IMG/VR virus record: IMGVR_UViG_3300048091_000425
Direction: 5' to 3' (one strand)
Source: a virus
Length of the DNA stretch: 64,000 bases
The translations under genes were made by a program, and so were the position numbers. Under the pieces are notes generated by a model. That model was given only the letters and a program-made list of their open reading frames with translations. It was not told the origin of the DNA and did no database searches. Below are positions 22,641 through 58,789 of this stretch, in pieces. Numbering within the stretch: position 1 is the stretch's first letter; the number at the start of each line of letters is the position of its first letter.

Positions 22641-22676
22641 TGTTTAGAGTATAGTATCAATAAGCCATAATGACAA
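22641..22676 (-). promoter_or_regulatory. sigma70 promoter with motif-A palindrome
   Basis: TTGTCA-17-TATACT on minus strand; TGTTTAGAGTATAGTATCAATA 22641-22662. Confidence 0.8.
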
Positions 22677-22751
22677 TATATGTAATACGTTAAATTACCG
22701 ATAAGTCTGAAATTCCCGAAGAAAAGGGCCTATCACGGCCCTTCTCTTCAC

Positions 22752-23027
22752 TCAGGCAGCCTGATCCAGGCCGTACAACTGAGCATGGGCGGTATGCCAG
22801 TCAGGCGGGAGGTTGGCCACTTCGCCCTGGGCCCACTCCATCACGGCCTGCTCAGCGCCCAGCGCGTACATCGGCACCACATGGTCATAGCGGGCTGCAG
22901 CCACTTTTAGGATGCCGTCGGCGTACAGGCAACTGATGACCAGCTCAATGTCCTCAGGCCTGCCGTAGGTGACCACAGCGCTCCAGGCACTGGCGTCAGG
23001 CTGGGTAGTGATGGATTTGATCCGCAT
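22752..23027 (-). CDS. hypothetical protein
   Basis: 91-aa ORF, AGGAG RBS. Confidence 0.7.
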   Translation of the reverse strand: MRIKSITTQPDASAWSAVVTYGRPEDIELVISCLYADGILKVAAARYDHVVPMYALGAEQAVMEWAQGEVANLPPDWHTAHAQLYGLDQAA

Positions 23028-23041
23028 AGCGATGGCTCCTG

Positions 23042-23962
23042 TCAGACCTGCTCGTCCGGGACACCCAGCGTCGAAGCCCGTGCGACTTCGAGCAATGCCA
23101 AGGCCCGTTCTTTTGCTGCCAAAAAATGCTCCGATTCGCAGCCATCAATGTCAAAGATGCTAAGGGCTTGAAGTTCAGCCAAGACCGAGAAGGCAGCGTC
23201 TCGGCTGGCGAGCAGTTCAAGCACGTCGGGTTCGCTGTAAACGCGTTCCTGCCGATCCTGGGGGCCTGAACTCCAGTGGGTTGCGTAATCCCAAAAGCCA
23301 CGACCGTCCTTCCAACGCCAAGCAGCGACGCGCATTCCGCGCAGCATTTCACCTGACCACGGAGCCTGAACACGAACAAGACCGGCTGGAGATCCGGCTG
23401 GCGCTGGGGCCAAGGTCAAACTCTCGACTGGCAGGTCAATCAGAACAGGATTGCTGATCGCTTCCTGCGTGGCCTTGGCTGCACCAAACCAGCCACCGCC
23501 ACGCCATGCGTTATCGCACATCTCGTACTTTTCCACGGTCACAGAGTCGTCGATATTCACTTTCGCCCAAAAGACCTTGCCATCAATCAGTACGGCAGCC
23601 TCAGCGCCGACGCTTGCGTCGTAAATGCGCAATGCCTTGCCTGGGTTCCGCTCAAGAATCCGGCGATAGCTGCTAATCGCGGTTTGGTGGGTCAGTGGCA
23701 GGTCAATCAGGATCGGGGTTTCGATAGCTTTCTTGGTCGCCTCATGCTCACCGAACCAGCCGCAGCCGATCCAGCCATGACCGTCCATTTCTGGCATATC
23801 GGCCAGTTCAATGGAGCCAAGTTCGCTTTCCTGACCCCAGCGCAACGTGTCACCGTCCAGAACGACTATCACCTTACTGGCATCATACAGGCGCAAAGCC
23901 TTGCCTGGGTTTTGTGACAGGATTTGGCGATAGGTTTCTTTGACCGACTGGTAGGTGAGCAT
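23042..23962 (-). CDS. hypothetical protein with internally duplicated domain
   Basis: Two copies of YRxILxxNPGKALRxYDAS...GWFG...AIxxPxLIDLP; GGAG RBS before ATG 23962. Confidence 0.8.
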   Translation of the reverse strand: MLTYQSVKETYRQILSQNPGKALRLYDASKVIVVLDGDTLRWGQESELGSIELADMPEMDGHGWIGCGWFGEHEATKKAIETPILIDLPLTHQTAISSYRRILERNPGKALRIYDASVGAEAAVLIDGKVFWAKVNIDDSVTVEKYEMCDNAWRGGGWFGAAKATQEAISNPVLIDLPVESLTLAPAPAGSPAGLVRVQAPWSGEMLRGMRVAAWRWKDGRGFWDYATHWSSGPQDRQERVYSEPDVLELLASRDAAFSVLAELQALSIFDIDGCESEHFLAAKERALALLEVARASTLGVPDEQV

Positions 23963-24000
23963 GGCGTTCTCCGGTGTGCGCGATGACTGAGGCAGTCCCA

Positions 24001-24096
24001 ACGAATGTGGTAAATTGCCTTCGTGTTACGACTATAGTGCAAACACACATGCAGCGCTAGACGCTGGGCGAAATAAATTTATCCCTAGCGTCATAC
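24001..24096 (-). promoter_or_regulatory. promoter cassette: motif A + motif B
   Basis: TGTTACGACTATAGTGCAAACA at 24024; AAATAAATTTATCCCTAGCGTCATAC at 24071; gap-free alignment to 26165-26260. Confidence 0.8.
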
Positions 24097-24119
24097 TCAT
24101 ATTGATGCGTCAGGTCGAG

Positions 24120-24887
24120 TTAAGCGACCAGCTCCACCAGGGGGATGCGGCTCATGTGCATCGTGTAGCCGGTGAGCTTTTCCAACGCAACGTACTTATC
24201 AAACAGCTCCGGTCGCAGCTTACGGCCATTCTTCAGGTCGCGCTTGTTGGCCATGATGCAGAACACGCAGCTCAGGCGGTCATTGCCTTCTGCATAGGCG
24301 TAGTGCGGTTTCTGCCCTGCCTGCTCGATGATGCCAAAGACCTCAGGGGACGACAGGTCGTGAATCGGCAGCCACTCATACCATGTGTTGACGCTGTTGG
24401 AGTCGCGCTCATTGAGTCGAAACGGGGCACGTTTAGCCCGGCCTGGGGATTCCTGGGCACGCAGGCCGAGGCAGTTTACGATCACCTTGTAACCGTTGGC
24501 CTTTGCATACCGGCGCACCTCACGCTGGATCGGCCCGCGCTTGAGGTCACTGGTGCATTGACGGGTGGAGGCCGACGGCCAGCTTGGCACTTCCGGGCGA
24601 CTCTCGAACCGGCGTTCAACCATTTCCAGCAAGGTTTTGGTTGCGTGGGCCACGATGAACGGCAAGCCGGCTGCTGCTGCCTGGTCGCGAGCCAGCTCCA
24701 TGGCGCCTGGCCATTCCATTTCACCCAGGGACGCATGGACGACGATCATCTGCGCCGCTGGAACGCGCTCCAGCAGCCGAACCAGCATGGCCTGGGAGTC
24801 CTTGCCCCCTGAGTGGTTGCCCACAAAAAGAGCCCCTGCTGCTATCAGGCTATCGATCTGGTCTTCAAGGGTAGGCATGGTATTCAT
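24120..24887 (-). CDS. PAPS reductase-family (CysH/DndC-like) protein
   Basis: PP-loop NHSGGKDS, RQCTSDLKRGP, LGLRAQESPGRA, WLPIHD, RLSCVFC. Confidence 0.88.
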   Translation of the reverse strand: MNTMPTLEDQIDSLIAAGALFVGNHSGGKDSQAMLVRLLERVPAAQMIVVHASLGEMEWPGAMELARDQAAAAGLPFIVAHATKTLLEMVERRFESRPEVPSWPSASTRQCTSDLKRGPIQREVRRYAKANGYKVIVNCLGLRAQESPGRAKRAPFRLNERDSNSVNTWYEWLPIHDLSSPEVFGIIEQAGQKPHYAYAEGNDRLSCVFCIMANKRDLKNGRKLRPELFDKYVALEKLTGYTMHMSRIPLVELVA

Positions 24888-24951
24888 GAATTATGATCCT
24901 GGCGATGTTCAGTACCGGCTCAGCCCCAATTAAGGGGCTTGTGGCTGGCGC

Positions 24952-25212
24952 TTAAAGGTGGGGGACGTCGTCAGGAACGTTGGAGTCGCGGAATCGGCAT
25001 TTCTCACCGGTGTCCGTCACACCGAGAATCAAACCGGCCTCCTCCCCAACTTCGTCATGGTGTCCGGTGACCTTGACCCAGTCCAATGAATGCCCGCGCT
25101 GCACAAACACTTGGGTGCCCACCGGGTACATCTTGCGCACTGCAGCGATCAGGGCTTTCTGAGCTTCCTTGACATTTTCCGTGGCTTTTTCAACGCTGCT
25201 TTTCATCTTCAT
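24952..25212 (-). CDS. hypothetical protein
   Basis: MKMKSSVEK... start at ATG 25212. Confidence 0.65.
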   Translation of the reverse strand: MKMKSSVEKATENVKEAQKALIAAVRKMYPVGTQVFVQRGHSLDWVKVTGHHDEVGEEAGLILGVTDTGEKCRFRDSNVPDDVPHL

Positions 25213-25280
25213 GTCCCGTGATTTGCTTGGTCTACTACTGACAATGCCCCAGTAAAGGGGCTTGAGCTGGGCGGGGTTGG

Positions 25281-25436
25281 TTAGCGGCTCAGTTCGCCGC
25301 GAATCGCCCACCAGCCTGAATCTGTGTGTTCGACTTGTGCGTCGGCGTAACCAAGCATATTGAGAGCTTTCACATAAGCATCTGCATCAGACTTCAGCGG
25401 GAACCATTCGCGAGGTTTCTTTCCAATAGTTTTCAT
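25281..25436 (-). CDS. small hypothetical protein
   Basis: GGAG RBS, MKTIGKKPREWF..., 51 aa. Confidence 0.6.
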   Translation of the reverse strand: MKTIGKKPREWFPLKSDADAYVKALNMLGYADAQVEHTDSGWWAIRGELSR

Positions 25437-25509
25437 ATCGTCTTGCTCCGATGTGGGCGTGCCTTTACTGACAAAGCCCCAATGAAGGGGCTTGTGGCTG
25501 GCGTGGCGC

Positions 25510-25656
25510 TTACCCGCGATTGACGTTGGCCCACTTCCAGCCGCGTTGCCATTCTGTATTTTTTCGGCTATCGAAGTGTTCACCACCCCGGCAGTCCTGA
25601 AAACCTGCCTGGAACGAGTAGCACTGCTCAATAAGGTAGATTTGACGTTCGCACAT
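25510..25656 (-). CDS. 48-aa Rmf-like microprotein
   Basis: GAGGAG RBS; MCERQIYLIEQCYSFQAGFQDCRGGEHFDSRKNTEWQRGWKWANVNRG; below ORF-track cutoff. Confidence 0.65.
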   Translation of the reverse strand: MCERQIYLIEQCYSFQAGFQDCRGGEHFDSRKNTEWQRGWKWANVNRG

Positions 25657-25690
25657 GGTGAGGCTCCTCGTTGATGGTCTGCCGATCCCG

Positions 25691-26092
25691 TCAGTAGTTG
25701 TAGGACAGTCTCACGATTACAGAGAACTCCCGAGGTTTAGTTCGGTGAGCGTCGGCGTAGTAGCTTGCACAGCCACAGCAGTCGTATTCATGACCACAGC
25801 CACCACCGGACAGCGACTCCTCAATGGCCCGATTCATCCACTTGGTGAAGCTCGGTCGGCCATTACTGACTACACGACGGTAGGTGGCTTTGGCGGCTTC
25901 CAGCTCAGCAGGAGTCAGCACGACCAGCCGTGCGGTTGAGCCGCCATCCGACGCTTCTTCGTCACTCGGCGCAGCCACCACGTAGGACTTGGAAGTACGG
26001 GCGTTGCACACCTGCTCCCAATTGTCCAAATGGGCATAGCCTTGGACGTAGCGAGAGGTCAGTCGGCTTTCGATGCTGATGGCTGTTTTCAT
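25691..26092 (-). CDS. hypothetical protein with CGHEYDCCGC motif
   Basis: 133-aa ORF, first gene after cassette at 26165. Confidence 0.75.
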   Translation of the reverse strand: MKTAISIESRLTSRYVQGYAHLDNWEQVCNARTSKSYVVAAPSDEEASDGGSTARLVVLTPAELEAAKATYRRVVSNGRPSFTKWMNRAIEESLSGGGCGHEYDCCGCASYYADAHRTKPREFSVIVRLSYNY

Positions 26093-26164: not shown

Positions 26165-26260
26165 ACGAATGGGGTAAATTGCCGCCGTGTTATGACTATA
26201 GTCAAAACAAACGCCCAGCGCTAGTGGCCAGGCGAAATAAATTAACCTTTAGAGTTATAC
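26165..26260 (-). promoter_or_regulatory. promoter cassette: motif A + motif B
   Basis: TGTTATGACTATAGTCAAAACA at 26188; AAATAAATTAACCTTTAGAGTTATAC at 26235. Confidence 0.8.
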
Positions 26261-26293
26261 GCCGACCAGCGAAAGACCTCAGAAATAGGGCAA

Positions 26294-27664: not shown

Positions 27665-27737
27665 TGTTTAGAGTATAGTGGCAATACATGGGTAATACCA
27701 GCGCCCCAGAGAAATAAATTAATCTCTAGGGTGATAC
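27665..27737 (-). promoter_or_regulatory. promoter cassette: motif A + motif B
   Basis: TGTTTAGAGTATAGTGGCAATA at 27665; AAATAAATTAATCTCTAGGGTGATAC at 27712. Confidence 0.8.
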
Positions 27738-28718: not shown

Positions 28719-28790
28719 TGTTTTGACTATAGTCTAAACATAAATCGAATGCTATACTCCGCTCAAATAAATTAATCTCTAGGGTAATAC
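28719..28790. promoter_or_regulatory. promoter cassette: motif A + motif B, divergent junction
   Basis: TGTTTTGACTATAGTCTAAACA at 28719; AAATAAATTAATCTCTAGGGTAATAC at 28765. Confidence 0.8.
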
Positions 28791-28793
28791 GTA

Positions 28794-29477
28794 ATGACCG
28801 AGATCAATTCAGCAGAGAACGACTTCAAGGCCGAGTACGATGCTGCGTGCTCCCCTGCCGATCCAATGTGCCAGACGCCGACTTTTGAGCAATTCCGCCA
28901 GGTCATCAAAGATAAGCTTGAAGAAGAAGGCGAGCATGAAGGCCGTGTACTGCTGCTCGGCTTTGGCGACTTCGACGAGTTCTTTACCTGGCTTGATACC
29001 TTGAACGCCTATGAGGCTCGGGATACGGATGACGTGACCAGCTACCGGGCAGGGCTCGAAGCGATTTACAAGTCACTGGTCGCTGAGTACAAGGCCGTGA
29101 AGGCCTGCCCATTCTGCGGCGACTGTGACTCGAACCTGTCCAACAACGGCATCGAGAGTAATTTCGTGGTTTGTGACTGTGGTGCAGAAGGCCCTCCCGG
29201 CACCGATGACATTCAAGCAGTCATTGAATGGAACCGACGGGCTCAACTCTCAACAGGTGGGATCGTCGGCTATCAAGTGCAGACCCCGGCTGGCGATCAG
29301 TGGGCAGGTCGACCGGAAAATATCATCCTTAGCCAAGCGACGGCGATCAAGGATCTGCGCACGGCTCGAAAAGGCCAAGGGAAGTGGCTCATGGTCGCGG
29401 TGCTGGAAGGCGACGTCGAAAATCCTTCTTTCGAGGATTGGCCCGAATGGCTCATGGGAACGAGAAACGAAGGCTGA
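28794..29477 (+). CDS. protein with Lar-like (restriction alleviation) zinc finger
   Basis: KACPFCGD...VVCDCGAEGP...AVIEWNRRA. Confidence 0.72.
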   Translation: MTEINSAENDFKAEYDAACSPADPMCQTPTFEQFRQVIKDKLEEEGEHEGRVLLLGFGDFDEFFTWLDTLNAYEARDTDDVTSYRAGLEAIYKSLVAEYKAVKACPFCGDCDSNLSNNGIESNFVVCDCGAEGPPGTDDIQAVIEWNRRAQLSTGGIVGYQVQTPAGDQWAGRPENIILSQATAIKDLRTARKGQGKWLMVAVLEGDVENPSFEDWPEWLMGTRNEG

Positions 29478-32771: not shown

Positions 32772-32848
32772 TGGTGTTAGGAGCGAGATTCGAACTCGCG
32801 GCCTGTCGCTTAGGAGGCAACCGCTCTATCCAGCTGAGCTATCCCAAC
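32772..32848 (-). tRNA. tRNA-Arg(CCT)
   Basis: 77-nt cloverleaf GTTGGGA..TCCTAAC-A-CCA, anticodon loop CT-CCT-AA, GTTCGAATC T-loop. Confidence 0.93.
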
Positions 32849-32861
32849 GTGTATCAGAATT

Positions 32862-32935
<74 letters not shown>

Positions 32936-33046
32936 AAGTCCTGAAACCGGCGAACCAGCCCCAGGGTACGACAGCACCCCCACCACAGAGACAGCTAGCG
33001 TGCTTTGTGCAGACACCCTACGGACGTCCACGAAACCGGTGTTGCT

Positions 33047-33112
33047 GTATTCGTGAATCTCAGAAGTGGATTTGAACCCCCATTCTGCCCCGCCACTGAG
33101 ACTCACGAATAC
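33047..33112 (-). ncRNA. anticodon-less tRNA-like element in the tRNA operon spacer
   Basis: 17-bp stem enclosing AGTGG D-loop-like and GGTTCAAATCC T-loop-like motifs. Confidence 0.45.
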
Positions 33113-33143
33113 ACACTGTTTACGGTCAGTGAATCGTGTTTCT

Positions 33144-33220
33144 TGGCGCACCCGGCTGGACTCGAACCAGCGACCATCCGCTTAGAAGGCGGATGCTCTA
33201 TCCAGCTGAGCTACGGGCAC
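33144..33220 (-). tRNA. tRNA-Arg(TCT)
   Basis: 77-nt cloverleaf, anticodon loop CT-TCT-AA, GGTTCGAGTCC, CCA end. Confidence 0.95.
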
Positions 33221-33269: not shown

Positions 33270-33298
33270 AATCTACGCCGCTGTTGCCAAGGTGTCAA
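33270..33298 (-). promoter_or_regulatory. sigma70 promoter of tRNA operon
   Basis: TTGACA-17-TAGATT on minus strand. Confidence 0.75.
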
Positions 33299-33694: not shown

Positions 33695-33716
33695 TGTTTG
33701 AGGTATACTCATAACA
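33695..33716 (+). promoter_or_regulatory. motif-A palindrome
   Basis: TGTTTGAGGTATACTCATAACA upstream of 33742 operon. Confidence 0.75.
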
Positions 33717-35731: not shown

Positions 35732-35947
35732 CTACAGGATAATGAGTTCTTTGTTTTGGCCCGTGATCGGGTCGTGAATCAGGATCTGTTTACCACCTTG
35801 AAGCTCTTTGCGCAGGCGGTGCTGTAGGGCCACGGTTTGACGCAAGACTTCGGTTTTGGTGACTCCGCTGTCATCAGCCATTTCAATCATCAGTGTCATG
35901 GTGTCTTGCGGCAACTTCACCGTCAGCTTGTGCTTCTCCATCGGCAT
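35732..35947 (-). CDS. ribbon-helix-helix (CopG-like) DNA-binding protein
   Basis: KLTVKLP..T...M..MA..SGVTKTEVLRQ.V. Confidence 0.75.
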   Translation of the reverse strand: MPMEKHKLTVKLPQDTMTLMIEMADDSGVTKTEVLRQTVALQHRLRKELQGGKQILIHDPITGQNKELIIL

Positions 35948-36457: not shown

Positions 36458-36479
36458 TATTTGCGGTATACTCGCAACA
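36458..36479 (+). promoter_or_regulatory. motif-A palindrome on promoter
   Basis: TATTTGCGGTATACTCGCAACA; TTGAAG-16-TATACT. Confidence 0.7.
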
Positions 36480-40039: not shown

Positions 40040-40075
40040 TTTACACGCAAGTTTATTATGACTATAGTGACAACA
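40040..40075 (+). promoter_or_regulatory. sigma70 promoter with motif A
   Basis: TTTACA-17-TATAGT; TATTATGACTATAGTGACAACA 40054-40075. Confidence 0.8.
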
Positions 40076-41415: not shown

Positions 41416-41616
41416 ATGATGGCAACCACCGCAGCGGCCTACGCAACACAACAGGGCATTTCGATCAGCACCGCTCGAAAGCGCCTGACTGAAATGGTTG
41501 AGGCTGGCCTGGCTACCGTTTCGTACAACGTCATCATCGGCCAGGGTTCCCGCAAGCGTGGGGCTCGAAGCCACATGGTCTCGATCCGAGGCAACCTGTA
41601 CAACATCAGTCAATAG
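41416..41616 (+). CDS. small winged-HTH-like protein
   Basis: YATQQGISISTARKRLTEMVEAGLA. Confidence 0.62.
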   Translation: MMATTAAAYATQQGISISTARKRLTEMVEAGLATVSYNVIIGQGSRKRGARSHMVSIRGNLYNISQ

Positions 41617-42332: not shown

Positions 42333-42662
42333 GTGGCCATGACAGCTCTCAGCAACCCCCAGCGCCGTAACCTGGCCATGGCGATCATCCGCTACCGCTC
42401 CCGCGTCGGCGGGCTCGGCATGCTGGTCAACAACAAATGGTGCGCGATCATTAAGCGCTCGCCCGAGCTGAAGGCTCTTATCAAGAAAAAGCTGGTGGTT
42501 CAGGTGCGCCGCGAGGCTCTGGGCCGCAAGCGTGAGACCTATCTGGTGCCAGCCGACGGCATCACGTTGGAAACCGCGCCGGGTTGCCCGGAGTGCGGCA
42601 GGCCCCTCACCCACTTCCGTGCACTGATGAGCGACAGCGGCAGCGTCTGCTATCACCAATAA
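42333..42662 (+). CDS. basic protein with C-terminal CPEC zinc ribbon
   Basis: 109-aa ORF. Confidence 0.65.
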   Translation: MAMTALSNPQRRNLAMAIIRYRSRVGGLGMLVNNKWCAIIKRSPELKALIKKKLVVQVRREALGRKRETYLVPADGITLETAPGCPECGRPLTHFRALMSDSGSVCYHQ

Positions 42663-43511: not shown

Positions 43512-43547
43512 TTGACCCTCCGGCATGTTATGACTATACTCACAACA
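43512..43547 (+). promoter_or_regulatory. sigma70 promoter with motif A
   Basis: TTGACC-17-TATACT; TGTTATGACTATACTCACAACA 43526-43547. Confidence 0.82.
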
Positions 43548-44805: not shown

Positions 44806-44840
44806 TTGCTTCAGTTGGTGTTTAGAGTATACTCGCAACA
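44806..44840 (+). promoter_or_regulatory. promoter with motif A
   Basis: TTGCTT-16-TATACT; TGTTTAGAGTATACTCGCAACA 44819-44840. Confidence 0.78.
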
Positions 44841-44868: not shown

Positions 44869-45099
44869 ATGCGTAGACGTGTAACCCTCGCCCAGGCTGG
44901 GTACGAGCTGGTCAAATCTCTTGGCGAAGGCCGTCATATTATCACCCAGGGTGGGAATTCCCACGAAGAATGGGTTGAGAAACTGGACGGTGGTCGTACC
45001 ATCGGCAACCTGTCCATGGACGGTAAGCCCCTGACCTTCATCCAGAGCTTTTGCAAGCCTGACTGCTGCTGCAACTTCTGCGTAGGACACATCGGATGA
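44869..45099 (+). CDS. small protein with C-terminal Cys cluster
   Basis: AGGA RBS; FCKPDCCCNFC. Confidence 0.62.
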   Translation: MRRRVTLAQAGYELVKSLGEGRHIITQGGNSHEEWVEKLDGGRTIGNLSMDGKPLTFIQSFCKPDCCCNFCVGHIG

Positions 45100-45503
45100 G
45101 CCATATGCCTTTGCCTTTTACGTTCAATCAAGACGCCGCCACCGAGCATCAGGGCCCGCTCAATACCAAGATTGAGTACACCTATCACTGCGCTCGCAAC
45201 TTTGGGACGGAAGGCACCATCGTCGTCGCCGGACAAGCCTCTCCTGAGGCCCTGCAAGTCATCGCGACCAAGCTTTACGAACGGGAATGCTTTCTACCCA
45301 AGCAAGTCGGCATTGATAGCCTGACCCCGGACGAAGACAGCGACGAATACGTCGCCGAGCTGGATCATCCGCTGCACAAATTTGAAGTGTTCAGCTTGAC
45401 CGAGGAAGCACCCACCGTGCTCCTCACGTTTGAACAACTCTTTGAAACTTTCCAGGGCATCAACAGCGATTTCGACTGGAATTTCCAGAAGTTCGGCCTT
45501 TAA
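45096..45503 (+). CDS. acidic hypothetical protein
   Basis: ATGA-coupled ORF. Confidence 0.7.
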   Translation: MSHMPLPFTFNQDAATEHQGPLNTKIEYTYHCARNFGTEGTIVVAGQASPEALQVIATKLYERECFLPKQVGIDSLTPDEDSDEYVAELDHPLHKFEVFSLTEEAPTVLLTFEQLFETFQGINSDFDWNFQKFGL

Positions 45504-45530
45504 TTCACGCGATAAAATGGAGCTGTACCG

Positions 45531-46034
45531 ATGCGCCAATCTGATAACGAACTCAAACGCTTCAAGGTCGACGTGTTCCTCACTGTTCGCGTAGCGGTCA
45601 ATGAGATCGTCGCGAAAGGCCCGGTGCAGGCCGCACAGATCGCCAATCAGCTGGACTTCAGCGCTGCCGTGGGCCGCGTAGGCTACTCCGCCTGGTTGAA
45701 CGAGGGTGTCGGGCAACGGTTTGAAACCGGTGACGTGGATATTCAGGAGCTGGACGCCCTTTATTACGGCATCTACCCGGTTGCTGACGAAGAAGACGGC
45801 ACGGATGACCGCGTACTGGCCCTGCACGGTGATTTCAGCACGGTAAAGCCCGACGAAAACCCAGCTGACAGGCATTACGACCTGCTTAGCCAGTTGATTC
45901 AAGCCCTGGACAAAAGCGGCGAAGGCGACTTCCGCCTGGGTCGTGAACATCTTCCCCTGCTGATCGAGGCCGCGAAGGCCACGAATCAACCGCGACCATT
46001 CGACCCCCAGTGGGACGCACACCTTCCCTTCTGA
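45531..46034 (+). CDS. acidic hypothetical protein
   Basis: GGAG RBS, 167 aa. Confidence 0.72.
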   Translation: MRQSDNELKRFKVDVFLTVRVAVNEIVAKGPVQAAQIANQLDFSAAVGRVGYSAWLNEGVGQRFETGDVDIQELDALYYGIYPVADEEDGTDDRVLALHGDFSTVKPDENPADRHYDLLSQLIQALDKSGEGDFRLGREHLPLLIEAAKATNQPRPFDPQWDAHLPF

Positions 46035-46136
46035 AACGAAGGTTGTAAATTGCCGCACTACCCGGTCGGCCACCCATTTTAAAGCCAGGCCCGTGACCAA
46101 TTCGGGCCTGGTCTCCATTTTTAAGGACAAAACACC

Positions 46137-46799
46137 ATGAAAAACACCCCCACCGCACTGCAAGGCGCTCTGGCGTTCGACATTCTGACCCGCCTGGTCA
46201 AAGCCATGACCTGGGACAACAGCCAAGGCGACACGGAAATCCATCTGGAAAACGCGGCCATCATCAATGAAGCCTTCGCCCTGTGTGGCGATCAGCCTAT
46301 GTGTGTTGATCCAAAATACCTGGGCGACATGGAAACCATCTACGGCTTCCCACGGGATACAGGCTCGTTCGATCCTATGAACTCGAATGACCACTACGCC
46401 GAACGCGTAGAAGCTGGGCTACGCGAGCAGTTCCATGCCCTGCGCAAGCGTATCGCCGAGGATCGCCTGGCTCAGGAGAGCCCCAAGCTGGCCGAGGTTT
46501 ACGTAAACGTTGAGACCACGGTGCCCCGCAGCCGCCTGAACTGTGAAGACTTGCAGATCGCCGGCACCTACAAAGTCATGGTGCCCGGCGACTTTGAAGC
46601 AGCCAAGCAGGCAGCGATTGCCCTCGCCGTATTCCACGACAAGGTTGGGCTCAAAGACCCAGCGCACTTCAACCTGCAGGTCATTCAGGTGATGGAGGCT
46701 GATCCGGCCTACTCTCAGCAAGTGCTGTCGTCTCTGGGCGAATACAAGGGCGCCTTCAGCTTTCACCCAAGCTTGGAGCCGGTCGCTCGAAAGGCGTGA
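46137..46799 (+). CDS. hypothetical protein
   Basis: AAGGA RBS, 220 aa. Confidence 0.75.
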   Translation: MKNTPTALQGALAFDILTRLVKAMTWDNSQGDTEIHLENAAIINEAFALCGDQPMCVDPKYLGDMETIYGFPRDTGSFDPMNSNDHYAERVEAGLREQFHALRKRIAEDRLAQESPKLAEVYVNVETTVPRSRLNCEDLQIAGTYKVMVPGDFEAAKQAAIALAVFHDKVGLKDPAHFNLQVIQVMEADPAYSQQVLSSLGEYKGAFSFHPSLEPVARKA

Positions 46800-46836
46800 A
46801 TTAATTGAAATGTTTACTCCAAACGATAAACAACAA

Positions 46837-46864
46837 TTGACAAGTTAATCTCTAGGAGTAAACT
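46837..46864 (+). promoter_or_regulatory. promoter of ParB-like gene with motif-B variant in spacer
   Basis: TTGACA-16-TAAACT enclosing TTAATCTCTAGGAGTAAAC. Confidence 0.68.
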
Positions 46865-46896: not shown

Positions 46897-48015
46897 ATGT
46901 CCGCCACCGAACAGAAGACCGCCACCGAGCCAAAGACCTACGGTCTTGAGGCCCTTCTGGCCAGCGCCGGGGCCTTGAAACCGGTCACCGAGGAAACCGT
47001 GAATGGCCTGGAGCAATTCACCAAAATCTTCAACCATGGCAGCGTCAAAGCCAGTATGGCCGGGGTCAAAAGCCGTGACCTGTGGCAGGTAGACCCGCTT
47101 ACTGTGAAGTTCCTTGAGGACTTCAACACCCGCCTGGATACGCCAGATCTTGAGGCTCACATCGAAGCCTTGACCGTGTCGATCATCGAGAACGGCTTCT
47201 ACATCGACCAGCCTGTGACCATCATGGTGATCAGGGAGGTGGTTGACGGTGTAGAGGTGGACGTCAAGTACATCACCGGTGGCCATTGCCGTACCAAGGC
47301 CAGCTTGCGTGCCATTTCCCGTGGTGCACCGCTGAAGACCATTCCAGCAGTGACCGAAGACCGTGCGACCACGATTGAAGAGCTGATCGTGAAGCTGCAC
47401 CAGAGCAACACTGGTAAGCCGTTCACCCCATACGAAGTGGGCCTGAACTGCAAACGTCTGCTGCGCTTCAATTGGGATATCCCAATGATCGCCAAGAAAA
47501 TGAACTTGAGCGTTCCGTACACCACCAACTTGATCATGCTGGTGAGCAGCCCGTTCGAGATCCGCAACGCAGTGATCTTCAACAAGATCACGGCCACCCT
47601 GGCTATCGAATTGCTGCACAAATTCGGCCCCGAGAAGGCTGTCGCAGAACTGGCAGGAATGCTGTTCCGCGCTGCAAAAGAGGGCAAAACCCGCGTCACT
47701 GGCAAGCACGGCAAAGGCGCCCAGCTGAAGAAGGCCGTGACCAAGCATGGTGGCGACCTCTACGAGGCTGCCAAGAAAATCACCTCCGACCCTCAGTTCA
47801 AACAACTGAGCGCAGAGAACCAGACCCTGCTGCAGGACTTGATGGCCAAGCTCAAGGCAGCCGAAGCCGCAGACAAGGAAAACTCGGATGACTTCATCGA
47901 TGGTGAGTCGACCCAAGTAGCCTTCATCGAAGGTCAAGCGACCCGCGTAGACGAGCCGCTGCTGATCGAAGGTCAATCGACCCGTGTGGACGAGCCGGAA
48001 CAGGCCGTAGCCTGA
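46897..48015 (+). CDS. ParB-like protein (ParB N-domain + HTH), phage/accessory type
   Basis: FNTR...IEALTVSIIENGF..QPVTI...ITGGHCRTKA, SNTGKPFTPYE, HTH IAKKMNLSVPY. Confidence 0.8.
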   Translation: MSATEQKTATEPKTYGLEALLASAGALKPVTEETVNGLEQFTKIFNHGSVKASMAGVKSRDLWQVDPLTVKFLEDFNTRLDTPDLEAHIEALTVSIIENGFYIDQPVTIMVIREVVDGVEVDVKYITGGHCRTKASLRAISRGAPLKTIPAVTEDRATTIEELIVKLHQSNTGKPFTPYEVGLNCKRLLRFNWDIPMIAKKMNLSVPYTTNLIMLVSSPFEIRNAVIFNKITATLAIELLHKFGPEKAVAELAGMLFRAAKEGKTRVTGKHGKGAQLKKAVTKHGGDLYEAAKKITSDPQFKQLSAENQTLLQDLMAKLKAAEAADKENSDDFIDGESTQVAFIEGQATRVDEPLLIEGQSTRVDEPEQAVA

Positions 48016-48085: not shown

Positions 48086-48454
48086 ATGGTCAATGACCTT
48101 AACAACCCGGCTCCCGGCACGCTGACTGAAGAAGTGTTCAGCATGCTGATCGAGGATGCTGACATTACCAGCGAAGGGGCGATCAAAGCCCTACGCGCCC
48201 ATTTTGTTCAAGGTCTTTGCGCGAAAACCTCGTACAGCCAGCACGGCGTAAGCCGTAGTTACTTTTCGCAAAGCCTCAAGCGAATGAACAAGCGAATCGC
48301 CCGAGAGGCCAGGATGATAGCCCTGTGCGCTCCTGAGCGGGCCCAGCAAGCCAATGTCGCGAAATTGCTGACTCAGAGCCAGGCTATCGCGAGTGACCTC
48401 CATAACGCGCTCACAACTGCCGTTGCCACCACAGCCGGAGAACTTCAGTCATGA
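48086..48454 (+). CDS. PapB/FocB-like transcriptional regulator
   Basis: PGTLTEEVFSMLI...SEGAIKALRAHFVQG...HGVSRSYFSQSLKRM aligns to PapB. Confidence 0.72.
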   Translation: MVNDLNNPAPGTLTEEVFSMLIEDADITSEGAIKALRAHFVQGLCAKTSYSQHGVSRSYFSQSLKRMNKRIAREARMIALCAPERAQQANVAKLLTQSQAIASDLHNALTTAVATTAGELQS

Positions 48455-50153: not shown

Positions 50154-50339
50154 TCCCCAGGCGCCAAAGCCCACCGAGGCAGAGGTCAGAGAGAAGTCGC
50201 CCCTTCCAGGCGCAGCCTGGCCTCAGCTTTGCCCAAAACAAAGCCCGTCATACTCTAGGCATTCAATGTTATTGCTAGTATACTGGCAATACAGCGCTTG
50301 TGTTTGAGAGCAACCCTCCCCCACCAAAGAGCACGCGAC

Positions 50340-50864
50340 ATGACAAAACAAAAGCCGAGCTTCCATGACCGCACCTCAGGCGAGAACCTGGCACGTTCAC
50401 CCCACAACGCTCGGGATGATCACCGCATCCGCACCGAAGACGCTGACGGGACGGTAACGCTCTCCGGCACCGCGTATGACGCAGCTCAGGCCAGTTATGC
50501 TGCGCTGTTGGCCGACCGCGACAACCTGCTATCGCTGCTCAGGACAGCCAAGGCCAGTCGTTTCGATTTCATGGCCAATGACCCGCTGCAGCGCAACATC
50601 GATGCCGCCCTGGCTCAGGAGCGAAGCAACATGTTGCTTCGGGACTTCGTCGACGGCCAGGCTATCGCAGAGACTACCCCTGACGTCGAGAGCGACGCTG
50701 ATGACGATTGGATCATGAACCCTTGCCATCAGGGGCACCGTGACGTCGGTGCCGGCATGGGGATCGCCATGTGCAACATCTGCAAAGAGAAGATCTGCCG
50801 CGAGACCACGGCAGAAGCGTACACCGAGTGGAACCGCACTCACCCCGAGGCGAAGGTCGCCTAA
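50340..50864 (+). CDS. protein with C-terminal Lar-like zinc ribbon
   Basis: NPCHQGH...MCNICKE...AYTEWNR. Confidence 0.65.
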   Translation: MTKQKPSFHDRTSGENLARSPHNARDDHRIRTEDADGTVTLSGTAYDAAQASYAALLADRDNLLSLLRTAKASRFDFMANDPLQRNIDAALAQERSNMLLRDFVDGQAIAETTPDVESDADDDWIMNPCHQGHRDVGAGMGIAMCNICKEKICRETTAEAYTEWNRTHPEAKVA

Positions 50865-51433: not shown

Positions 51434-51455
51434 TGTTATGACTATAGTGGTAATA
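51434..51455 (+). promoter_or_regulatory. motif-A palindrome
   Basis: TGTTATGACTATAGTGGTAATA. Confidence 0.75.
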
Positions 51456-51503: not shown

Positions 51504-52070
51504 ATGACAATTCTTGCCGATTTCTGGACAACCAACCTCCCTGATGTTGCAGGCGCATATTTTGCCCGTCCTGTGGGTGAAACCCAGGCCTTTGCCGTGG
51601 AAGTCGCTGAGACCCCCGATGGACTGATGGTCAACTTCAATGGCTCCCCGTCTGCCCGCGATTTTGAGGACGGCTGGCTGTATGTCGTTGAGATGGATAG
51701 CGCGGAATTTGAATGGCAAGGCCCTTTGTCACCAGCTGGTGACATGACTGCCGAGCTGGAAGCCGTCCAGGCGATTACCGCATCAATCGCTTCCGGCCAA
51801 TGCTGGACAGCAGAGCATGGCGACTCCGAAGCTGCTGGCCCGATCTCATCGGCGCTGGAAGAGGCCGCAGGTCGGTTCAACGAGGAGAGCGAGGAGAACC
51901 TCAAGCTCCTGATCAAGACGGCCAGCCAGCTCCTGGCCCTGCGTGGCGCTGTTGCTGCTCTACAGGCTGCCAATCCAGGCCTCAACGGGCAGGAATGGGA
52001 TGATCTTCAGGTCTCCATGAGCAGAAGCGATTCAGCCACAGCGCTTGCTGAGACAATTCTCAACAAATAA
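51504..52070 (+). CDS. acidic hypothetical protein
   Basis: ATG 51504 downstream of motif A. Confidence 0.7.
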   Translation: MTILADFWTTNLPDVAGAYFARPVGETQAFAVEVAETPDGLMVNFNGSPSARDFEDGWLYVVEMDSAEFEWQGPLSPAGDMTAELEAVQAITASIASGQCWTAEHGDSEAAGPISSALEEAAGRFNEESEENLKLLIKTASQLLALRGAVAALQAANPGLNGQEWDDLQVSMSRSDSATALAETILNK

Positions 52071-52150: not shown

Positions 52151-52172
52151 TGTTTAGAGTATAGTAATAACA
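52151..52172 (+). promoter_or_regulatory. motif-A palindrome
   Basis: TGTTTAGAGTATAGTAATAACA. Confidence 0.75.
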
Positions 52173-53431: not shown

Positions 53432-53457
53432 TTGATAATTAATCTCTGGCGTAATAC
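53432..53457 (+). promoter_or_regulatory. motif-B variant upstream of 53520 operon
   Basis: TTGATAATTAATCTCTGGCGTAATAC; TAAACT -10 at 53470. Confidence 0.6.
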
Positions 53458-53519
53458 AGAAGTTACGAGTAAACTACCAACATACAGCAACCCGCTTCCG
53501 CAGACAGGTAGGACTCAGC

Positions 53520-53918
53520 ATGGCGCTTAAAGTGTTTTCAGGACTGGTCAAGGTGATGGGCATTCAACGACCTACCATCGTGGCAGCCACCACCCAAAAG
53601 CGCGCCTCGGAACTCTTAGGCGTCTCCATCCGGATCATGTGCGATTACTGGGAAGTCAGTGAAGACCCGACCGAGATCGCGATGGCCACTGCCCAGCCCG
53701 AAACGGTGTTCCGGTCGTCGAAGATCCTGGCCAAGGACTTTCAGCCGGTGGTGAGCCCGATCAACACCAACAGCACCTTCTACAGCGATGGCTGGATGGA
53801 TGCTCGCCAGGGTAAGCCTGCCTCGGTTCCATCTGGCGTGCATGGAAACGAGTACATGGCCGGTTTCACCGCTGCCGGCATGGCGGCAGATGAACAACTC
53901 AATCAAGCCATCCAATAA
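53520..53918 (+). CDS. hypothetical protein with C-terminal Rmf-like motif
   Basis: FYSDGWMDARQGKP...EYMAGF. Confidence 0.7.
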   Translation: MALKVFSGLVKVMGIQRPTIVAATTQKRASELLGVSIRIMCDYWEVSEDPTEIAMATAQPETVFRSSKILAKDFQPVVSPINTNSTFYSDGWMDARQGKPASVPSGVHGNEYMAGFTAAGMAADEQLNQAIQ

Positions 53919-53933
53919 CCTGCGGAGCACCGT

Positions 53934-54194
53934 ATGAACCAGGCCGAACTCCATCAACCTGTCGACTCCTTTGGTGCTTTGCTGGTTGCCTTCCTCAAGG
54001 CGAACCGACTGCATCTCGACGGGATGGAACCACCCTCCTCGGTGACTTACTCGCGCAATGTTGACCTCGACTGCTGGGCAGTTGCGTTCCGCGACAGCTG
54101 CGATGAACCGGTGAGCGTCCAAATTGATCATGAAGATCTCTTGGGTTGGGTATGGTTGAAACTGGGCAATCTTCTCAGCCCAAGCGGGTACTGA
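53934..54194 (+). CDS. small hypothetical protein
   Basis: GGAG RBS. Confidence 0.66.
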   Translation: MNQAELHQPVDSFGALLVAFLKANRLHLDGMEPPSSVTYSRNVDLDCWAVAFRDSCDEPVSVQIDHEDLLGWVWLKLGNLLSPSGY

Positions 54195-54197
54195 GTC

Positions 54198-54521
54198 ATG
54201 GCCCAGAAGACACCAATGCCTGAGTTCTTTTATGAGCTCCAGCTCTCGGACAACCGCACAGCGGTCTGGATTCATGCCTCTGACGGCTCGACCGTGGGTC
54301 GATTTGGCCGCCAGGGCATCGATCTGCACAACACGGTGTCCGAACAAATGAAAGGCGCTTCCGAGTGCCGGCTGTGCACTCACGGCCAGCCTGGTGTCGA
54401 GGAGTGGAACTTGTTCCGGGAAAAAGCACTTGAATGGTGGGGAGTAAATGTCCCTGCCGACGCCTTTGATGAAAGTTTATTTAAGCCAGCTGCTTGTCAG
54501 GAGGAACTGACTCATGAGTAA
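54198..54521 (+). CDS. hypothetical protein
   Basis: DGSTVGRFG...IDLH...CRLCTH motif. Confidence 0.7.
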   Translation: MAQKTPMPEFFYELQLSDNRTAVWIHASDGSTVGRFGRQGIDLHNTVSEQMKGASECRLCTHGQPGVEEWNLFREKALEWWGVNVPADAFDESLFKPAACQEELTHE

Positions 54522-55347: not shown

Positions 55348-55357
55348 GGGTGTTGGT

Positions 55358-55612: not shown

Positions 55613-55678
55613 ATCACTGGATACCCGAACACACAAAAGGCCTCTGTTGAGGCCTTTGTTGTTTCTGCTAGTACCTGG

Positions 55679-56149
55679 TCAGGCCGCTTGAGTGTCCAGC
55701 CAGGCTGTTGAGGCACTGCGCATTTCTGTATAGACGCGCACCAGGCTCAAATCCAGCAGGTAAGTTTCCTCCGCCTGGTCTTTACCGAGTAGAGCCGTGA
55801 ATCCGGTCGCGTCTGCTTGGGCCGAGCCCACGGCATGGCATTCTATCAGATCATCCAGATCAGTCAGCCAGTACGTCATGCAGGCTCGAAGCGCCTGGAT
55901 GCCACTCAAGCCATCGGCTTCGGTCAGCACCTGCCGTTTGTATTGCTCCCCAAGACCCCGCATCCCTTGCAGCTTACCCAGCAGTCGTGCAGTGGCATGT
56001 CGCAGGGGAAGCTCGGTGCAGCCCTGCTGGACGATTACAGCGCACTGATCGGCGACCTTGGCGAAGTGCTGTTGCAGCAGAGTCTTTATGAAGCTTTCAG
56101 CCCGCAGGAGGTGTTCGCAGCAGCCTTGCACCGGGTTAGTTACATCCAT
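55679..56149 (-). CDS. hypothetical helical protein
   Basis: GAGGA RBS before ATG 56149. Confidence 0.65.
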   Translation of the reverse strand: MDVTNPVQGCCEHLLRAESFIKTLLQQHFAKVADQCAVIVQQGCTELPLRHATARLLGKLQGMRGLGEQYKRQVLTEADGLSGIQALRACMTYWLTDLDDLIECHAVGSAQADATGFTALLGKDQAEETYLLDLSLVRVYTEMRSASTAWLDTQAA

Positions 56150-56270
56150 GCTTAATTCCTCATCGATCAATGCGGACAGTGCTCAATTTCAGCCTACCAT
56201 AGCCTTTTATAACCCAGACAGACTGCAAGTAACCAGCTCGGGTACCCAACATTTTGAACCCATAAGAAAC

Positions 56271-56299
56271 AAAAAAGGCCCCTTCAAGGGGCCTTTTTT
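56271..56299. terminator. terminator after mvaT-like gene
   Basis: AAAAAAGGCCCC-TTCAA-GGGGCCTTTTTT. Confidence 0.85.
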
Positions 56300-56308
56300 A
56301 AACCTGGC

Positions 56309-56674
56309 TTACTTACGCAGCCAGCTTTCAACAGTGTCAGAGCCGTGCTTGGCTTTCCACTCTTTCAGGGTTTTTTGATTGCCACCCTTGGTTTCAACAA
56401 GTTCACCAGTGTGCGGGTTCTGGTAAACCTTGATTTCGCGAGCGCGGCGGGTTTTCGTTTGAGTGCCGGCAACGGCAGTGATGTTGGTGTCGAAATCAGG
56501 GTAGATCAGCAAAGCGCCCTTGCGCAGAGAGAGGCCTTTAGAAGCAACGAAATCCTGCAGTTCTTTCTGCAGTTCGAGTTCCGGCGCAACATGCGGCTTA
56601 AGGTCAGCCAATTTCTTTTGCAGCTCAAGAATCGCTGCTTCGGTCGATCTGTATTCGTTAATCTTGTTGCTCAT
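56309..56674 (-). CDS. MvaT/H-NS-family nucleoid-associated xenogeneic silencer
   Basis: KINEYR...RRAREIKVYQNPHTGELVETKGGNQKTLKEWKAKHGSDTVESW. Confidence 0.93.
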   Translation of the reverse strand: MSNKINEYRSTEAAILELQKKLADLKPHVAPELELQKELQDFVASKGLSLRKGALLIYPDFDTNITAVAGTQTKTRRAREIKVYQNPHTGELVETKGGNQKTLKEWKAKHGSDTVESWLRK

Positions 56675-56733
56675 TTTGTCGTCCTCGACAGTGCGTTGGT
56701 TAGGGTGACTTTAGTGCCCCTTTGGTGGGGAGG

Positions 56734-56762
56734 AATATATTTAAGAATTGATTTAGTGTCAA
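56734..56762 (-). promoter_or_regulatory. sigma70 promoter of mvaT-like gene
   Basis: TTGACA-17-TATATT. Confidence 0.8.
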
Positions 56763-56811
56763 TTCTTTTTGGCATTAAAAGGCTATTTATTCTGTTTGTT
56801 TTCTTGAGATC

Positions 56812-57087
56812 AAAAAAAAGAGCCCTATAGAGGGCTCCTGATGACTACATAGTCATGGTCGGGCCAATAACCAGCCCCAATGATCTGTCCCAACGCTATT
56901 TAGGACAAAACTGCAGTGGTCGATAACAACCACCATTAATCAAAACCCCCGCTGGCAGCGTACCCAGCGTTACAGAGGCATTACCAGGGCTTCGTCGAAA
57001 CGAACTCGGACATGGGACACTTCTAGCGTCACAGTGTCCTAACCCCCTGGCGAACCAAGACTTTCTTGGCTCAGTGGTGAGGTGCCT
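56812..57087 (-). ncRNA. candidate stand-alone structured ncRNA (~275 nt)
   Basis: Promoter TTGCTA-17-TATACT (57120-57092), at least 8 hairpins, intrinsic terminator 56812-56837, no RBS-linked ORF. Confidence 0.65.
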
Positions 57088-57143
57088 TTGCAGTATAAGT
57101 ACCCTCAGGAGACCTAGCAACCACTAAATCAATTAAATTGCCA

Positions 57144-57518
57144 TCATGCCGAAACAATACCCAGGGCATGCACTGCATCTTTCAGTGCTTCCCGCTTACT
57201 GCCGCTTCGAAACTCTGCCCCTCGCTTAAATGCGAGGCTGTACCAACCCACATCGACCACGCCGGTGCGTGGATCTGTCGAACTATCAAACCTCAGTCCA
57301 GCCCGCTGAACCCTGGCCTGTTCATCCGTGGTCAGATCGATGCCCTGACCCAACACGGCAAACGCATCATCAGCCGCCTGGGCGAAGGAATCGAATCGCT
57401 CCTTAGAAGCCAGCCCTGTTGAGGAGCTGTACCAGCACCACTTGCCGGGTGTCGCCTCACGAAAGATCATTTCGACACGGGCTGTGGTAATGCCCGGATG
57501 GACAGCCTTACCCGTCAT
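57144..57518 (-). CDS. hypothetical protein
   Basis: ATGA-coupled ORF, 124 aa. Confidence 0.68.
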   Translation of the reverse strand: MTGKAVHPGITTARVEMIFREATPGKWCWYSSSTGLASKERFDSFAQAADDAFAVLGQGIDLTTDEQARVQRAGLRFDSSTDPRTGVVDVGWYSLAFKRGAEFRSGSKREALKDAVHALGIVSA

Positions 57519-57823
57519 GCCGAAGCCTGCTCGCCGGCTTCACCAGCCAAAGCTTGCCGGTAGAACGGATCCTGCATCAGCTCCAGGATCTCCCCTGCCG
57601 CTGTATTCAAGATATCGAGGGACACCGACACCGAAGACGGGCTTGCACCGTGCATCCTGCACGCCTCAGCCTGCGACACCCCATTCACAAGGTGTTCACG
57701 CATCGCTGGGATGGTGTACTTGCTCCGGATGTCAGTGTGATTTTTAACCAAACGGTCGAAATGCGAGGCGCTCACCTCACCCGGTACGAGCAGCACGGGT
57801 ACATCTTTCATTGGCTTTGGCAT
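57515..57823 (-). CDS. PapB/FocB-like transcriptional regulator, second paralogue
   Basis: LLVPGEVSASHFDRLV...IRSKYTIPAMREHLVNGVSQAEACRMHG. Confidence 0.75.
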   Translation of the reverse strand: MPKPMKDVPVLLVPGEVSASHFDRLVKNHTDIRSKYTIPAMREHLVNGVSQAEACRMHGASPSSVSVSLDILNTAAGEILELMQDPFYRQALAGEAGEQASA

Positions 57824-57839
57824 GTCGGTCTCCCAGGGC

Positions 57840-58070
57840 TTAGGACTGTTGTTTTTCCAGAGCCTGCGCATACAGGCTCAATTCGTCAGCAATCTTACGC
57901 AGATCGCCACGTTGAATGGTTTTCGGCAGGTTCAGGGAGATCGTCCCCTCTTCCCCATTCTTCTTGACGAGGGTATGGAGGATGCGTGCGTCACCCTGAC
58001 CTTCGAATGTCATGTTAGATACCAAGGCGCCGGCCAGGGTATCGGACTTTACAGGAATCAATTCAAGCAT
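57840..58070 (-). CDS. small hypothetical protein
   Basis: 76-aa ORF. Confidence 0.65.
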   Translation of the reverse strand: MLELIPVKSDTLAGALVSNMTFEGQGDARILHTLVKKNGEEGTISLNLPKTIQRGDLRKIADELSLYAQALEKQQS

Positions 58071-58206
58071 GATTTCGTTCCAAAGCAGTGTTAATCAATT
58101 GACGTAGCATACGAATTTAAAACGAGGCGTCCAGGCTTTACTGTCGCCTTTGGAAGTGTCGGTTATACCGCGCTTCTGAGCTTATCTTCGAGCTCGTAAA
58201 CCAGCA

Positions 58207-58389
58207 TCATTTCTTCCTTGGATCCTCAGCCGGCAACGGCTTGGCCACCCCACGCAACAGGGAATGCTTGGCACCGCAGTTGCAGGTGTGGAACAGCTTT
58301 TCGTCCCACTTGGCATACACGTACATCGGTAGGGTGTGAACCGCCCGGCAGCGAGTGCAGGTGTACGAGTCCGGTAATTCTTTGCCCAC
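58207..58389 (-). CDS. small zinc-ribbon protein
   Basis: CTRC...CNCG; GGAGG RBS. Confidence 0.65.
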   Translation of the reverse strand: MGKELPDSYTCTRCRAVHTLPMYVYAKWDEKLFHTCNCGAKHSLLRGVAKPLPAEDPRKK

Positions 58390-58743
58390 TTAAGCCACCT
58401 CCTTATGAAACCGCAGGGAAGCCTCAATGCTGTGCTCCAGGCTGCTGATTCTGGCACCTGTTGCACACCGGCTGACGACCCATTGAGCGAGATCCACCAG
58501 GTAGGCATAGGCTTCAACAAACGCCGAGGCTGCCGGGATGTCGTCAACAGAAGGATCGCGATGCGGCTGATGATCGAATGTTACCGAAGGTCTGGCCGTC
58601 GGATACGCCCGATCACTGCGCACGTGCATAACCACCGCGTCATCGAGATACCCTACCGGGCTACAACGCACCTGGAGCGAATCCTGGTACTCATCGGCAG
58701 AGCCGATGACCTTAAACGTCGCGCTCGACGGAGGGATCAACAT
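58390..58743 (-). CDS. hypothetical protein
   Basis: ATG 58743 downstream of motif A at 58768. Confidence 0.62.
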   Translation of the reverse strand: MLIPPSSATFKVIGSADEYQDSLQVRCSPVGYLDDAVVMHVRSDRAYPTARPSVTFDHQPHRDPSVDDIPAASAFVEAYAYLVDLAQWVVSRCATGARISSLEHSIEASLRFHKEVA

Positions 58744-58767
58744 GGCGGCACATCCAGTGGCTTTCAA

Positions 58768-58789
58768 TATTCTGAGTATAGTCTAAACA
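58768..58789 (-). promoter_or_regulatory. motif-A palindrome
   Basis: TATTCTGAGTATAGTCTAAACA. Confidence 0.72.

Follow-up and report, generated by a model that had tools for sequence, protein, structure and literature searches.

A palindrome on the -10 element of about 15 promoters in one block of a Pseudomonas megaplasmid, a putative operator for a KorA-like repressor

The DNA stretch IMGVR_UViG_3300048091_000425 (the window; 64,000 nucleotides, all positions below being counted along this whole stretch) comes from a ~1-Mb Pseudomonas megaplasmid and contains a single 36-kb block in which ~15 promoters, predicted to drive ~80 mostly small genes, share a 22-bp palindrome, TRTT-N3-RSTATAST-N3-AAYA, here called motif A. 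The most probable explanation, with a probability of about 0.6, is that motif A serves as operator for a dimeric repressor which the plasmid encodes and which acts on ~15 sigma-70-type -10 hexamers, and that the repressor is most likely PapB1, a helix-turn-helix (HTH) protein encoded within the block. From sequence comparison and structure modelling we infer protein binding, repression by this binding, and the identity of the regulator.

An exact search of the window revealed 14 copies of motif A, starting at positions 22641, 24024, 26188, 27665, 28719, 33695, 36458, 40054, 43526, 44819, 50270, 51434, 52151, and 58768. The chance expectation is 0 (0 matches across 100 dinucleotide-preserving shuffles). 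All 13 copies listed in the original prediction were recovered, and the copy at 50270 is additional to them. Twelve of the 14 sites match on both strands and are full palindromes at the specified positions. A search allowing up to two mismatches added a single site, the degenerate motif A at 53461. As had been stated, the site sequences do not fit the LexA box, CTGT-N8-ACAG.

On the strand-corrected gene map all sites are intergenic and lie 18–95 bp 5' of the first gene in a same-direction array, so that the proposed location at the heads of gene arrays holds for every one of them. Four sites (28719, 33695, 36458, and 40054) are located between divergent genes. The central hexamer, read toward the gene, is TATAGT or TATACT in all 14 exact sites. 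With this hexamer as the -10 element, the downstream arm of the palindrome occupies about -3 to +1 and the upstream arm -21 to -18, within the spacer. A recognisable -35 element, defined as at least four of six matches at 16–18 bp spacing, is present in 5 of the 19 oriented promoters: 22641(-), 36458(+), 40054(+), 43526(+), and 50270(+); a consensus scan agrees. Four of the five sites for which a -35 element had been claimed are among these, while the fifth, 44819, matches at only three of six positions, below the threshold.

The closest complete relative of the megaplasmid is plasmid pPL1 of Pseudomonas silesiensis (1,168,067 bp), which is syntenic with the window at 72–85% nucleotide identity. 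Each of the 15 window sites is matched in pPL1 by a site in the same syntenic intergenic location. In these 15 site pairs the 16 specified positions are 95% identical, compared with 67% for the six N positions and 68% for the flanks (ten bases either side of each site), and the TT at positions 3–4 and the AA at positions 19–20 are identical in 15 of 15 pairs. In a distant lineage represented by metagenome contigs, whose proteins are 40–70% identical to those of the window, gene order is retained and motif A is found at matching intergenic spots, one copy being perfect. A lineage with 78% identity likewise keeps motif A at matching intergenic spots. These sequence comparisons indicate purifying selection on the outer arms and on the symmetric centre, with spacers and flanks drifting. 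The same contrast between conserved arms and centre and drifting spacers and flanks supports the earlier proposal of a repressor-operator-type element rather than mere shared promoter ancestry.

The symmetry of motif A is informative about the kind of element involved. Complementarity across the dyad is observed at 197 of 224 specified positions and at 25 of 84 N3 positions, the latter value being that expected by chance. Since the N3 bases are not complementary, the dyad corresponds to a two-fold symmetric protein site and not to a hairpin; a hairpin, cruciform or single-strand promoter was ruled out on the same grounds. Each of the ten one-direction promoters retains both the upstream arm and a symmetric A at position 8, and therefore recognition by sigma-70 is insufficient as an explanation. 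Together, these sequence features point to a site for a dimeric DNA-binding protein placed on the -10 element. A likeness of the centre to the core of T7/SP6-type promoters was considered and dropped, the motif being two-fold symmetric and the block containing no match to an RNA polymerase family.

Motif A is confined to one region of the replicon. The 14 matches found in pPL1 when up to one mismatch is allowed are all located within 66.3–102.9 kb, and a control search with the reversed pattern gave 0 matches. In the nearest genome (a 7.6-Mb assembly) all 11 exact sites lie inside 34 kb of one contig. Just two isolated matches, taken as chance, were detected in 400 other genomes of the genus. 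A wider scan of genome contigs with a stricter motif gave, among the matches listed, single chance matches in unrelated taxa and no clusters. The occurrence of the sites in one block and their absence from the chromosome make a host factor unlikely. The regulon, originally described as plasmid-wide, is instead regional: it covers ~36 kb of ~1.1 Mb, and corresponds to one 34–37-kb block in pPL1 and in the nearest genome. Plasmid pBASL58, a member of the pMPPla107 family, was tried as a further relative and dropped, as it lacks motif A and its DNA similarity to the window is only marginal.

The window bears a Rep3-type initiator at 2268–3161 (-) (Rep3_N, E 4e-38), and the motif A block, ~36 kb long, begins ~19 kb from this Rep3 origin. 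The first 20 kb of the window are 99% identical to a contig of the nearest genome, and a close homologue of one window protein is located on a 1,059,468-bp contig. A ProQ/FinO-family protein (E 4e-22) is encoded near the initiator, at 9083–9493 (+).

In the proposed mechanism, repressor bound to motif A would keep RNA polymerase off the -10 element and the start site; a site over the -10 element represents the classic geometry of steric repression. The whole block would be co-repressed and then released together once the repressor becomes scarce. PapB1 would be the repressor. Its gene comes after a ParB-like one, an arrangement reminiscent of the single operon that holds korA and korB in IncP plasmids, and its position downstream of site 44819 would provide negative feedback. 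On plasmids of ~1 Mb the genes of unknown function number in the hundreds, and there is hardly any knowledge of how the host can afford their expression. One operator common to 15 promoters would mark a co-regulated block of ~80 genes, and the three regulator candidates named here (PapB1, its paralogue PapB2, and a winged-helix-like protein) would link megaplasmid control to the KorA/KorB logic of small broad-host-range plasmids. If this is true, loss of one repressor should switch on the whole block, aiding the assignment of functions, possibly including restriction alleviation.

The block encodes few candidate DNA-binding proteins, as revealed by family scans of 84 open reading frames (ORFs) in it and by follow-up scans. 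The best candidate repressor is PapB1 (48086..48454, +; 122 aa), a PapB/FocB-family HTH protein with a KorA-like DNA-binding domain. The ParB-like protein encoded directly 5' of it (46897..48015, +; 372 aa; PHROG 1033, E 9e-40) is a possible co-regulator. Alternative regulators could be PapB2 (57515..57823, -), a 102-aa paralogue of PapB1, and a basic winged-helix-like protein of 107 aa with a CxxC tail (42339..42662, +). The scans also yielded an MvaT-like silencer (56309–56674), a weakly matching ribbon-helix-helix (RHH) protein (35732–35941, -), and a weakly matching winged helix-turn-helix (wHTH) protein of 66 aa (41416–41616, +). PapB-like, RHH, ParB-like, and wHTH proteins had been put forward originally as regulator candidates. 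The PapB-like and ParB-like proteins remain, whereas the RHH and 66-aa wHTH proteins were rejected, neither having an orthologue in the syntenic pPL1 block, which keeps every site. Both look like lineage-specific insertions into motif A operons. Single-protein searches of viral contigs with the wHTH protein, PapB2, and the RHH protein gave no matches.

PapB1 and PapB2 match the Pfam family PF03333 (PapB) with E-values of 8e-14 and 1e-12 (51.9 and 47.9 bits, against a curated cut-off of 29.4). PapB is the only Pfam family listed for PapB1, while PapB and HTH_28 are listed for PapB2. The AlphaFold2 (AF2) model of PapB1, with a mean predicted local distance difference test (pLDDT) score of 84, contains the tri-helical HTH domain of the KorA fold. 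It is closest to FocB, with a root-mean-square deviation (rmsd) of 1.2 Å, followed by the KorA-operator complex (~2.1 Å, probability 1.0) and ArdK. Against the structures 5clv, 5cm3, and 2w7n it gives an rmsd of 2.0–2.3 Å over 60–62 residues at 24–25% identity, with probability 1.0. Residues 6–61 of KorA can be aligned with a joint profile of the two paralogues. Bases are contacted in KorA by R48 and Q53, and mutants of these residues lose specific binding wholly or in part (PMC2665229). Opposite R48, S52-Q53, and R57 of KorA, the alignment places Arg, Ser-Gln, and Arg in PapB1 and Pro, Ser-Val, and Ile in PapB2. The recognition helix of PapB1 is almost invariant across all lineages with motif A, even at 49% overall identity, and that of PapB1-like proteins differs in distant homologues from other elements, which are devoid of motif A. 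The two-gene module of the ParB-like protein and PapB1 recurs in distant elements (35% and 29% identity). Both sequence and model are thus consistent with the role of PapB1 as the repressor.

The similarity to the KorA (TrfB)/OA system of the IncP-1 plasmids RK2 and RP4 extends beyond the fold. KorA recognises a consensus operator, a 12-bp palindrome, at seven promoters in RK2 (PMC4889941, PMC2665229) and binds an inverted repeat at the -10 element of its targets (PMC9723621). A small plasmid-encoded HTH dimer acts there, and would act here, through inverted repeats on several -10 elements; the KorA half-site GTTTAG is the commonest outer arm of motif A; and korA shares an operon with korB, of the ParB family, just as the PapB1 gene follows that of a ParB-like protein. 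On the other hand, motif A is 22 bp long and its conserved centre is itself the -10 element, and its 15 sites are concentrated in one 36-kb megaplasmid block over small genes of unknown function, not over genes for replication, partition or transfer. The operator itself is undescribed, while the regulator family and the logic of an inverted repeat on the -10 element are already known from KorA (PMC9723621, PMC2665229).

Several observations weigh against repression by PapB1 through motif A. For PapB1 and PapB2 no match to Pfam KORA is listed at E-values up to 0.05, and profile matches to PDB structures are weak (KorA, E ~1; ArdK, E 0.02). Instead of the compact C-terminal domain with which KorA dimerises and also contacts KorB, the PapB1 model ends in two long helices (57–81 and 83–121). 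The arms of motif A are 8 bp farther apart than those of the KorA operator, and the positions read by KorA Gln53 correspond to the variable N3 of motif A; thus the mode of reading cannot equal that of KorA. A precedent on the other side is that members of the KorA family accept direct or inverted repeats with varied arm spacings (PMC9723621). Some sites may need an activator, since only 5 of the 19 promoters have a recognisable -35 element. The ParB-like–PapB1 gene pair has its own promoter, of the motif B type described below, at ~46.83–46.86 kb, so that feedback via motif A requires read-through. Finally, every candidate gene is physically linked to the block, and their joint occurrence in three or four related lineages does not discriminate among them.

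Other characterised systems resemble the proposed regulon in part. ArdK of the IncW plasmid R388 and the IncN plasmid pKM101 is a KorA-family repressor of several operons expressed early after entry (ardC, ssb, orf7, orf12, and orf14); it represses five establishment promoters via direct repeats at the -35 element (PMC9723621). Motif A differs in being an inverted repeat on the -10 element. ArdK of R388 is the best match of PapB2 among solved structures, followed by FocB. The original comparison with IncP KorA and IncN ArdK is apt, the block encoding two HTH proteins of the PapB/KorA fold. PapB and FocB belong to the Pfam family of both window proteins, but no fimbrial family is present among the Pfam and PHROG matches of the scanned block genes. 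The sites at which PapB and FocB act are AT-rich repeats of the fimbrial switch regions, and neither protein is known to act at a 22-bp palindrome on a -10 element. The SOS box of LexA is also a palindromic operator overlapping the promoters of many genes; motif A differs from it in sequence and spacing and has no chromosomal copies.

It is possible, if unlikely, that the operator model is right and the binder is not PapB1, but PapB2, the 107-aa winged-helix protein, the ParB-like protein or a factor encoded elsewhere on the megaplasmid. In favour of PapB2, its gene belongs to the operon behind site 58768 and the first helix of its HTH does not vary between lineages; against it, Arg, Gln, and Lys are all missing from its recognition helix where KorA makes its contacts. 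The 107-aa protein has no annotation and is encoded in the operon headed by site 40054. Few proteins of the block are as well conserved (95% identity in pPL1; 79% in the distant lineage, where most others have 40–70%). Its predicted structure is a winged helix with a CxxC tail, yet the matches of this model to known structures are weak (best E 0.07). Like motif A itself, this protein and the two PapB paralogues are absent from pBASL58. A homologue of the ParB-like protein is present there at 30% identity, which counts against this protein as the binder. The TGTT/AACA arms of motif A recall chromosomal parS, a point in its favour. Some perfect palindromes, found within the ParB-like gene and also at 50622 and 51727, were considered as parS-like sites and rejected, as they are not conserved in relatives.

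Explanations that dispense with a repressor fit less well. The palindrome could reflect a symmetric bidirectional sigma-70 core, without a dedicated factor, in which two overlapping -10 hexamers are combined with two preferred start regions: the centre ASTATAST gives TATAST on both strands, the arms put CA or TA near +1 in both directions, and four sites do lie between divergent genes. This is improbable, given that the ten one-direction sites keep the upstream arm and position-8 A, that the invariance of TT/AA across lineages far exceeds that normal for start regions, and that the motif is missing from the promoters of the host chromosome. Even less probable is an element-encoded activator or sigma-like factor that reads motif A and turns the promoters on. 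Such a factor would account for the lack of a -35 element at most sites, and the KorA/ArdK DNA-binding domain resembles sigma region 4 (PMC9723621). Distant relatives with the ParB-like–PapB-like pair also carry a different, non-palindromic recurrent upstream motif similar to a promoter element. The position of motif A, centred on the -10 element and the start point, is however the classic one for steric repression, and no sigma-like protein was found in the family scans of the block. Besides, we know of no two-fold symmetric promoter element for a sigma factor. Shared ancestry through duplication of one promoter cassette, or a DNA/RNA hairpin mark, is barely conceivable. The cassettes 24001–24096 and 26165–26260 are visibly related beyond the motif, but flanks and N3 have drifted to background levels of identity whereas the 16 specified positions are retained, and a stem interrupted by the non-complementary N3 would comprise 4+3 bp only.

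An operator bound by a plasmid-encoded repressor thus being the preferred explanation, the sites and the operons they head can be followed along the window. Five are located in its leftward part. Site 22641..22662 (-), with a -35 element TTGTCA at 17 bp and an orthologue in pPL1, heads the leftward operon 22595→21696. The exact site 24024..24045 (-) heads the leftward operon 23962→22752, with motif B upstream at 24071; the exact site 26188..26209 (-) heads the leftward operon 26092→24120, including a phosphoadenosine phosphosulfate (PAPS) reductase-like gene, with motif B at 26235; and the exact site 27665..27686 (-) heads the leftward operon 27642→26294, with motif B at 27712. Site 28719..28740, with a fully symmetric centre, lies between the divergent genes 28676(-) and 28794(+), the latter coding for a Lar-like protein.

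The next sites face mainly to the right. Site 33695..33716 (+) is exact and heads the rightward operon from 33742, its hexamer in the reverse direction being TATACC. The exact site 36458..36479 (+) heads the operon 36498→39209, which includes a glutathionylspermidine-synthase-like gene. Site 40054..40075, between divergent genes, has the promoter TTTACA-17-TATAGT and heads 40096→43482, containing the 107-aa winged-helix candidate. Site 43526..43547 (+; exact), with the promoter TTGACC-17-TATACT, heads the operon 43594→44775, and 44819..44840 (+; exact) heads the array 44869→50153 with the ParB-like gene and PapB1. Further exact sites on the plus strand are 50270..50291, heading the operon from 50340, 51434..51455, heading 51504–52070, and 52151..52172, heading the operon 52239→53365. 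The degenerate copy 53461..53482 (+), with two mismatches and the centre TAAACT, lies just 3' of a motif B-type promoter and heads the operon from 53520. The exact site 58768..58789 (-) heads the leftward operon 58743→57144, containing PapB2.

Two regions of the gene map required correction of the strand. The minus-strand ORFs 45294–46394 and 46419–46766, within 45096–46799, are spurious, the real genes being on the plus strand, as indicated by the concentration of substitutions relative to pPL1 at the third codon position. The minus-strand ORF 53616–54329, within 53520–54521, is likewise spurious; gene calls in a related contig favour plus-strand genes.

Genes under motif A promoters mostly lack a known function, and numerous small ORFs in the block have matches to PHROG families that are likewise uncharacterised. 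Besides the Lar-like, PAPS-reductase-like, and glutathionylspermidine-synthase-like genes, there is a weak CbtA-like match. The Lar-like domain in 28794–29477 is the only defence-related family match under these promoters. The idea that the block is switched on after transfer is a reasonable analogy with the establishment genes of smaller plasmids. Plasmid pPL1 is classed as non-mobilizable in PLSDB and gave no match to VirB4; it carries a coupling-protein-like ORF of 861 aa, and neither an oriT nor a relaxase was located. The PAPS-reductase-like gene (24120–24887, -) has 77% DNA identity to genes of the Pseudomonas putida phages Dolphis and Jeremy and is 80% identical to a gene on a P. atacamensis plasmid. 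Three tRNA genes, Arg-CCT, Gly-TCC, and Arg-TCT, are present inside the block at 32772–33220 (-), 3' of a near-consensus minus-strand promoter at 33298–33270.

Two other recurrent elements are found at promoters of the window. Motif B is a CTAG-centred quasi-palindrome that follows an AT-rich run; it occurs at 24071–24091, 26235–26255, 27712–27732, and 28765–28785, ~45 bp upstream of four leftward motif A sites. Its variants at ~46835–46860 and ~53436–53460 fill the spacers of the promoter of the ParB-like–PapB1 pair and of the promoter beside site 53461. In pPL1 motif B is mainly clustered at 214–255 kb, and it looks like a second, separate regulon. Motif C, GTATAG-N5-CTATAC, is located at 60003–60019 and 60881–60897, where it overlaps the -10 elements of two near-consensus minus-strand promoters before genes for proteins resembling single-stranded-DNA-binding protein (SSB). 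Its half-site resembles the core of motif A. Three SSB-like genes in all are found just outside the block, with their own promoters.

A broader scheme can be put forward tentatively, although as a whole it is rather unlikely. The megaplasmid would be split into separately switched blocks by the KorA/KorB-like pair of PapB1 and the ParB-like protein and by PapB2, each with its own operator family: motif A on the -10 elements here, motif B in promoter spacers here and at 214–255 kb in pPL1, and motif C at the ssb promoters. Under this scheme motif A would define a dedicated programme of ~80 genes of unknown function for establishment or counter-defence, and very large plasmids in general would be controlled by the ParB-like–PapB-like module, which in distant giant elements comes with lineage-specific promoter motifs.

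Two distant contigs, L131 (302 kb, from GCA_045446855.1) and L139 (a 256-kb Logan contig), contain the ParB-like–PapB-like pair together with arrays of small genes. The upstream motif recurring in them, TGAGCA...GATGACAC, is non-palindromic and precedes at least eight genes, and the recognition helix of their PapB-like protein differs from that of PapB1. In the window, GC-rich hairpins at 24052–24066 and 26212–26234 (-) lie between motif B and motif A, with a T-rich tail provided by the motif A arm; these hairpins may act as terminators for the upstream operon, placed directly at the following promoter.

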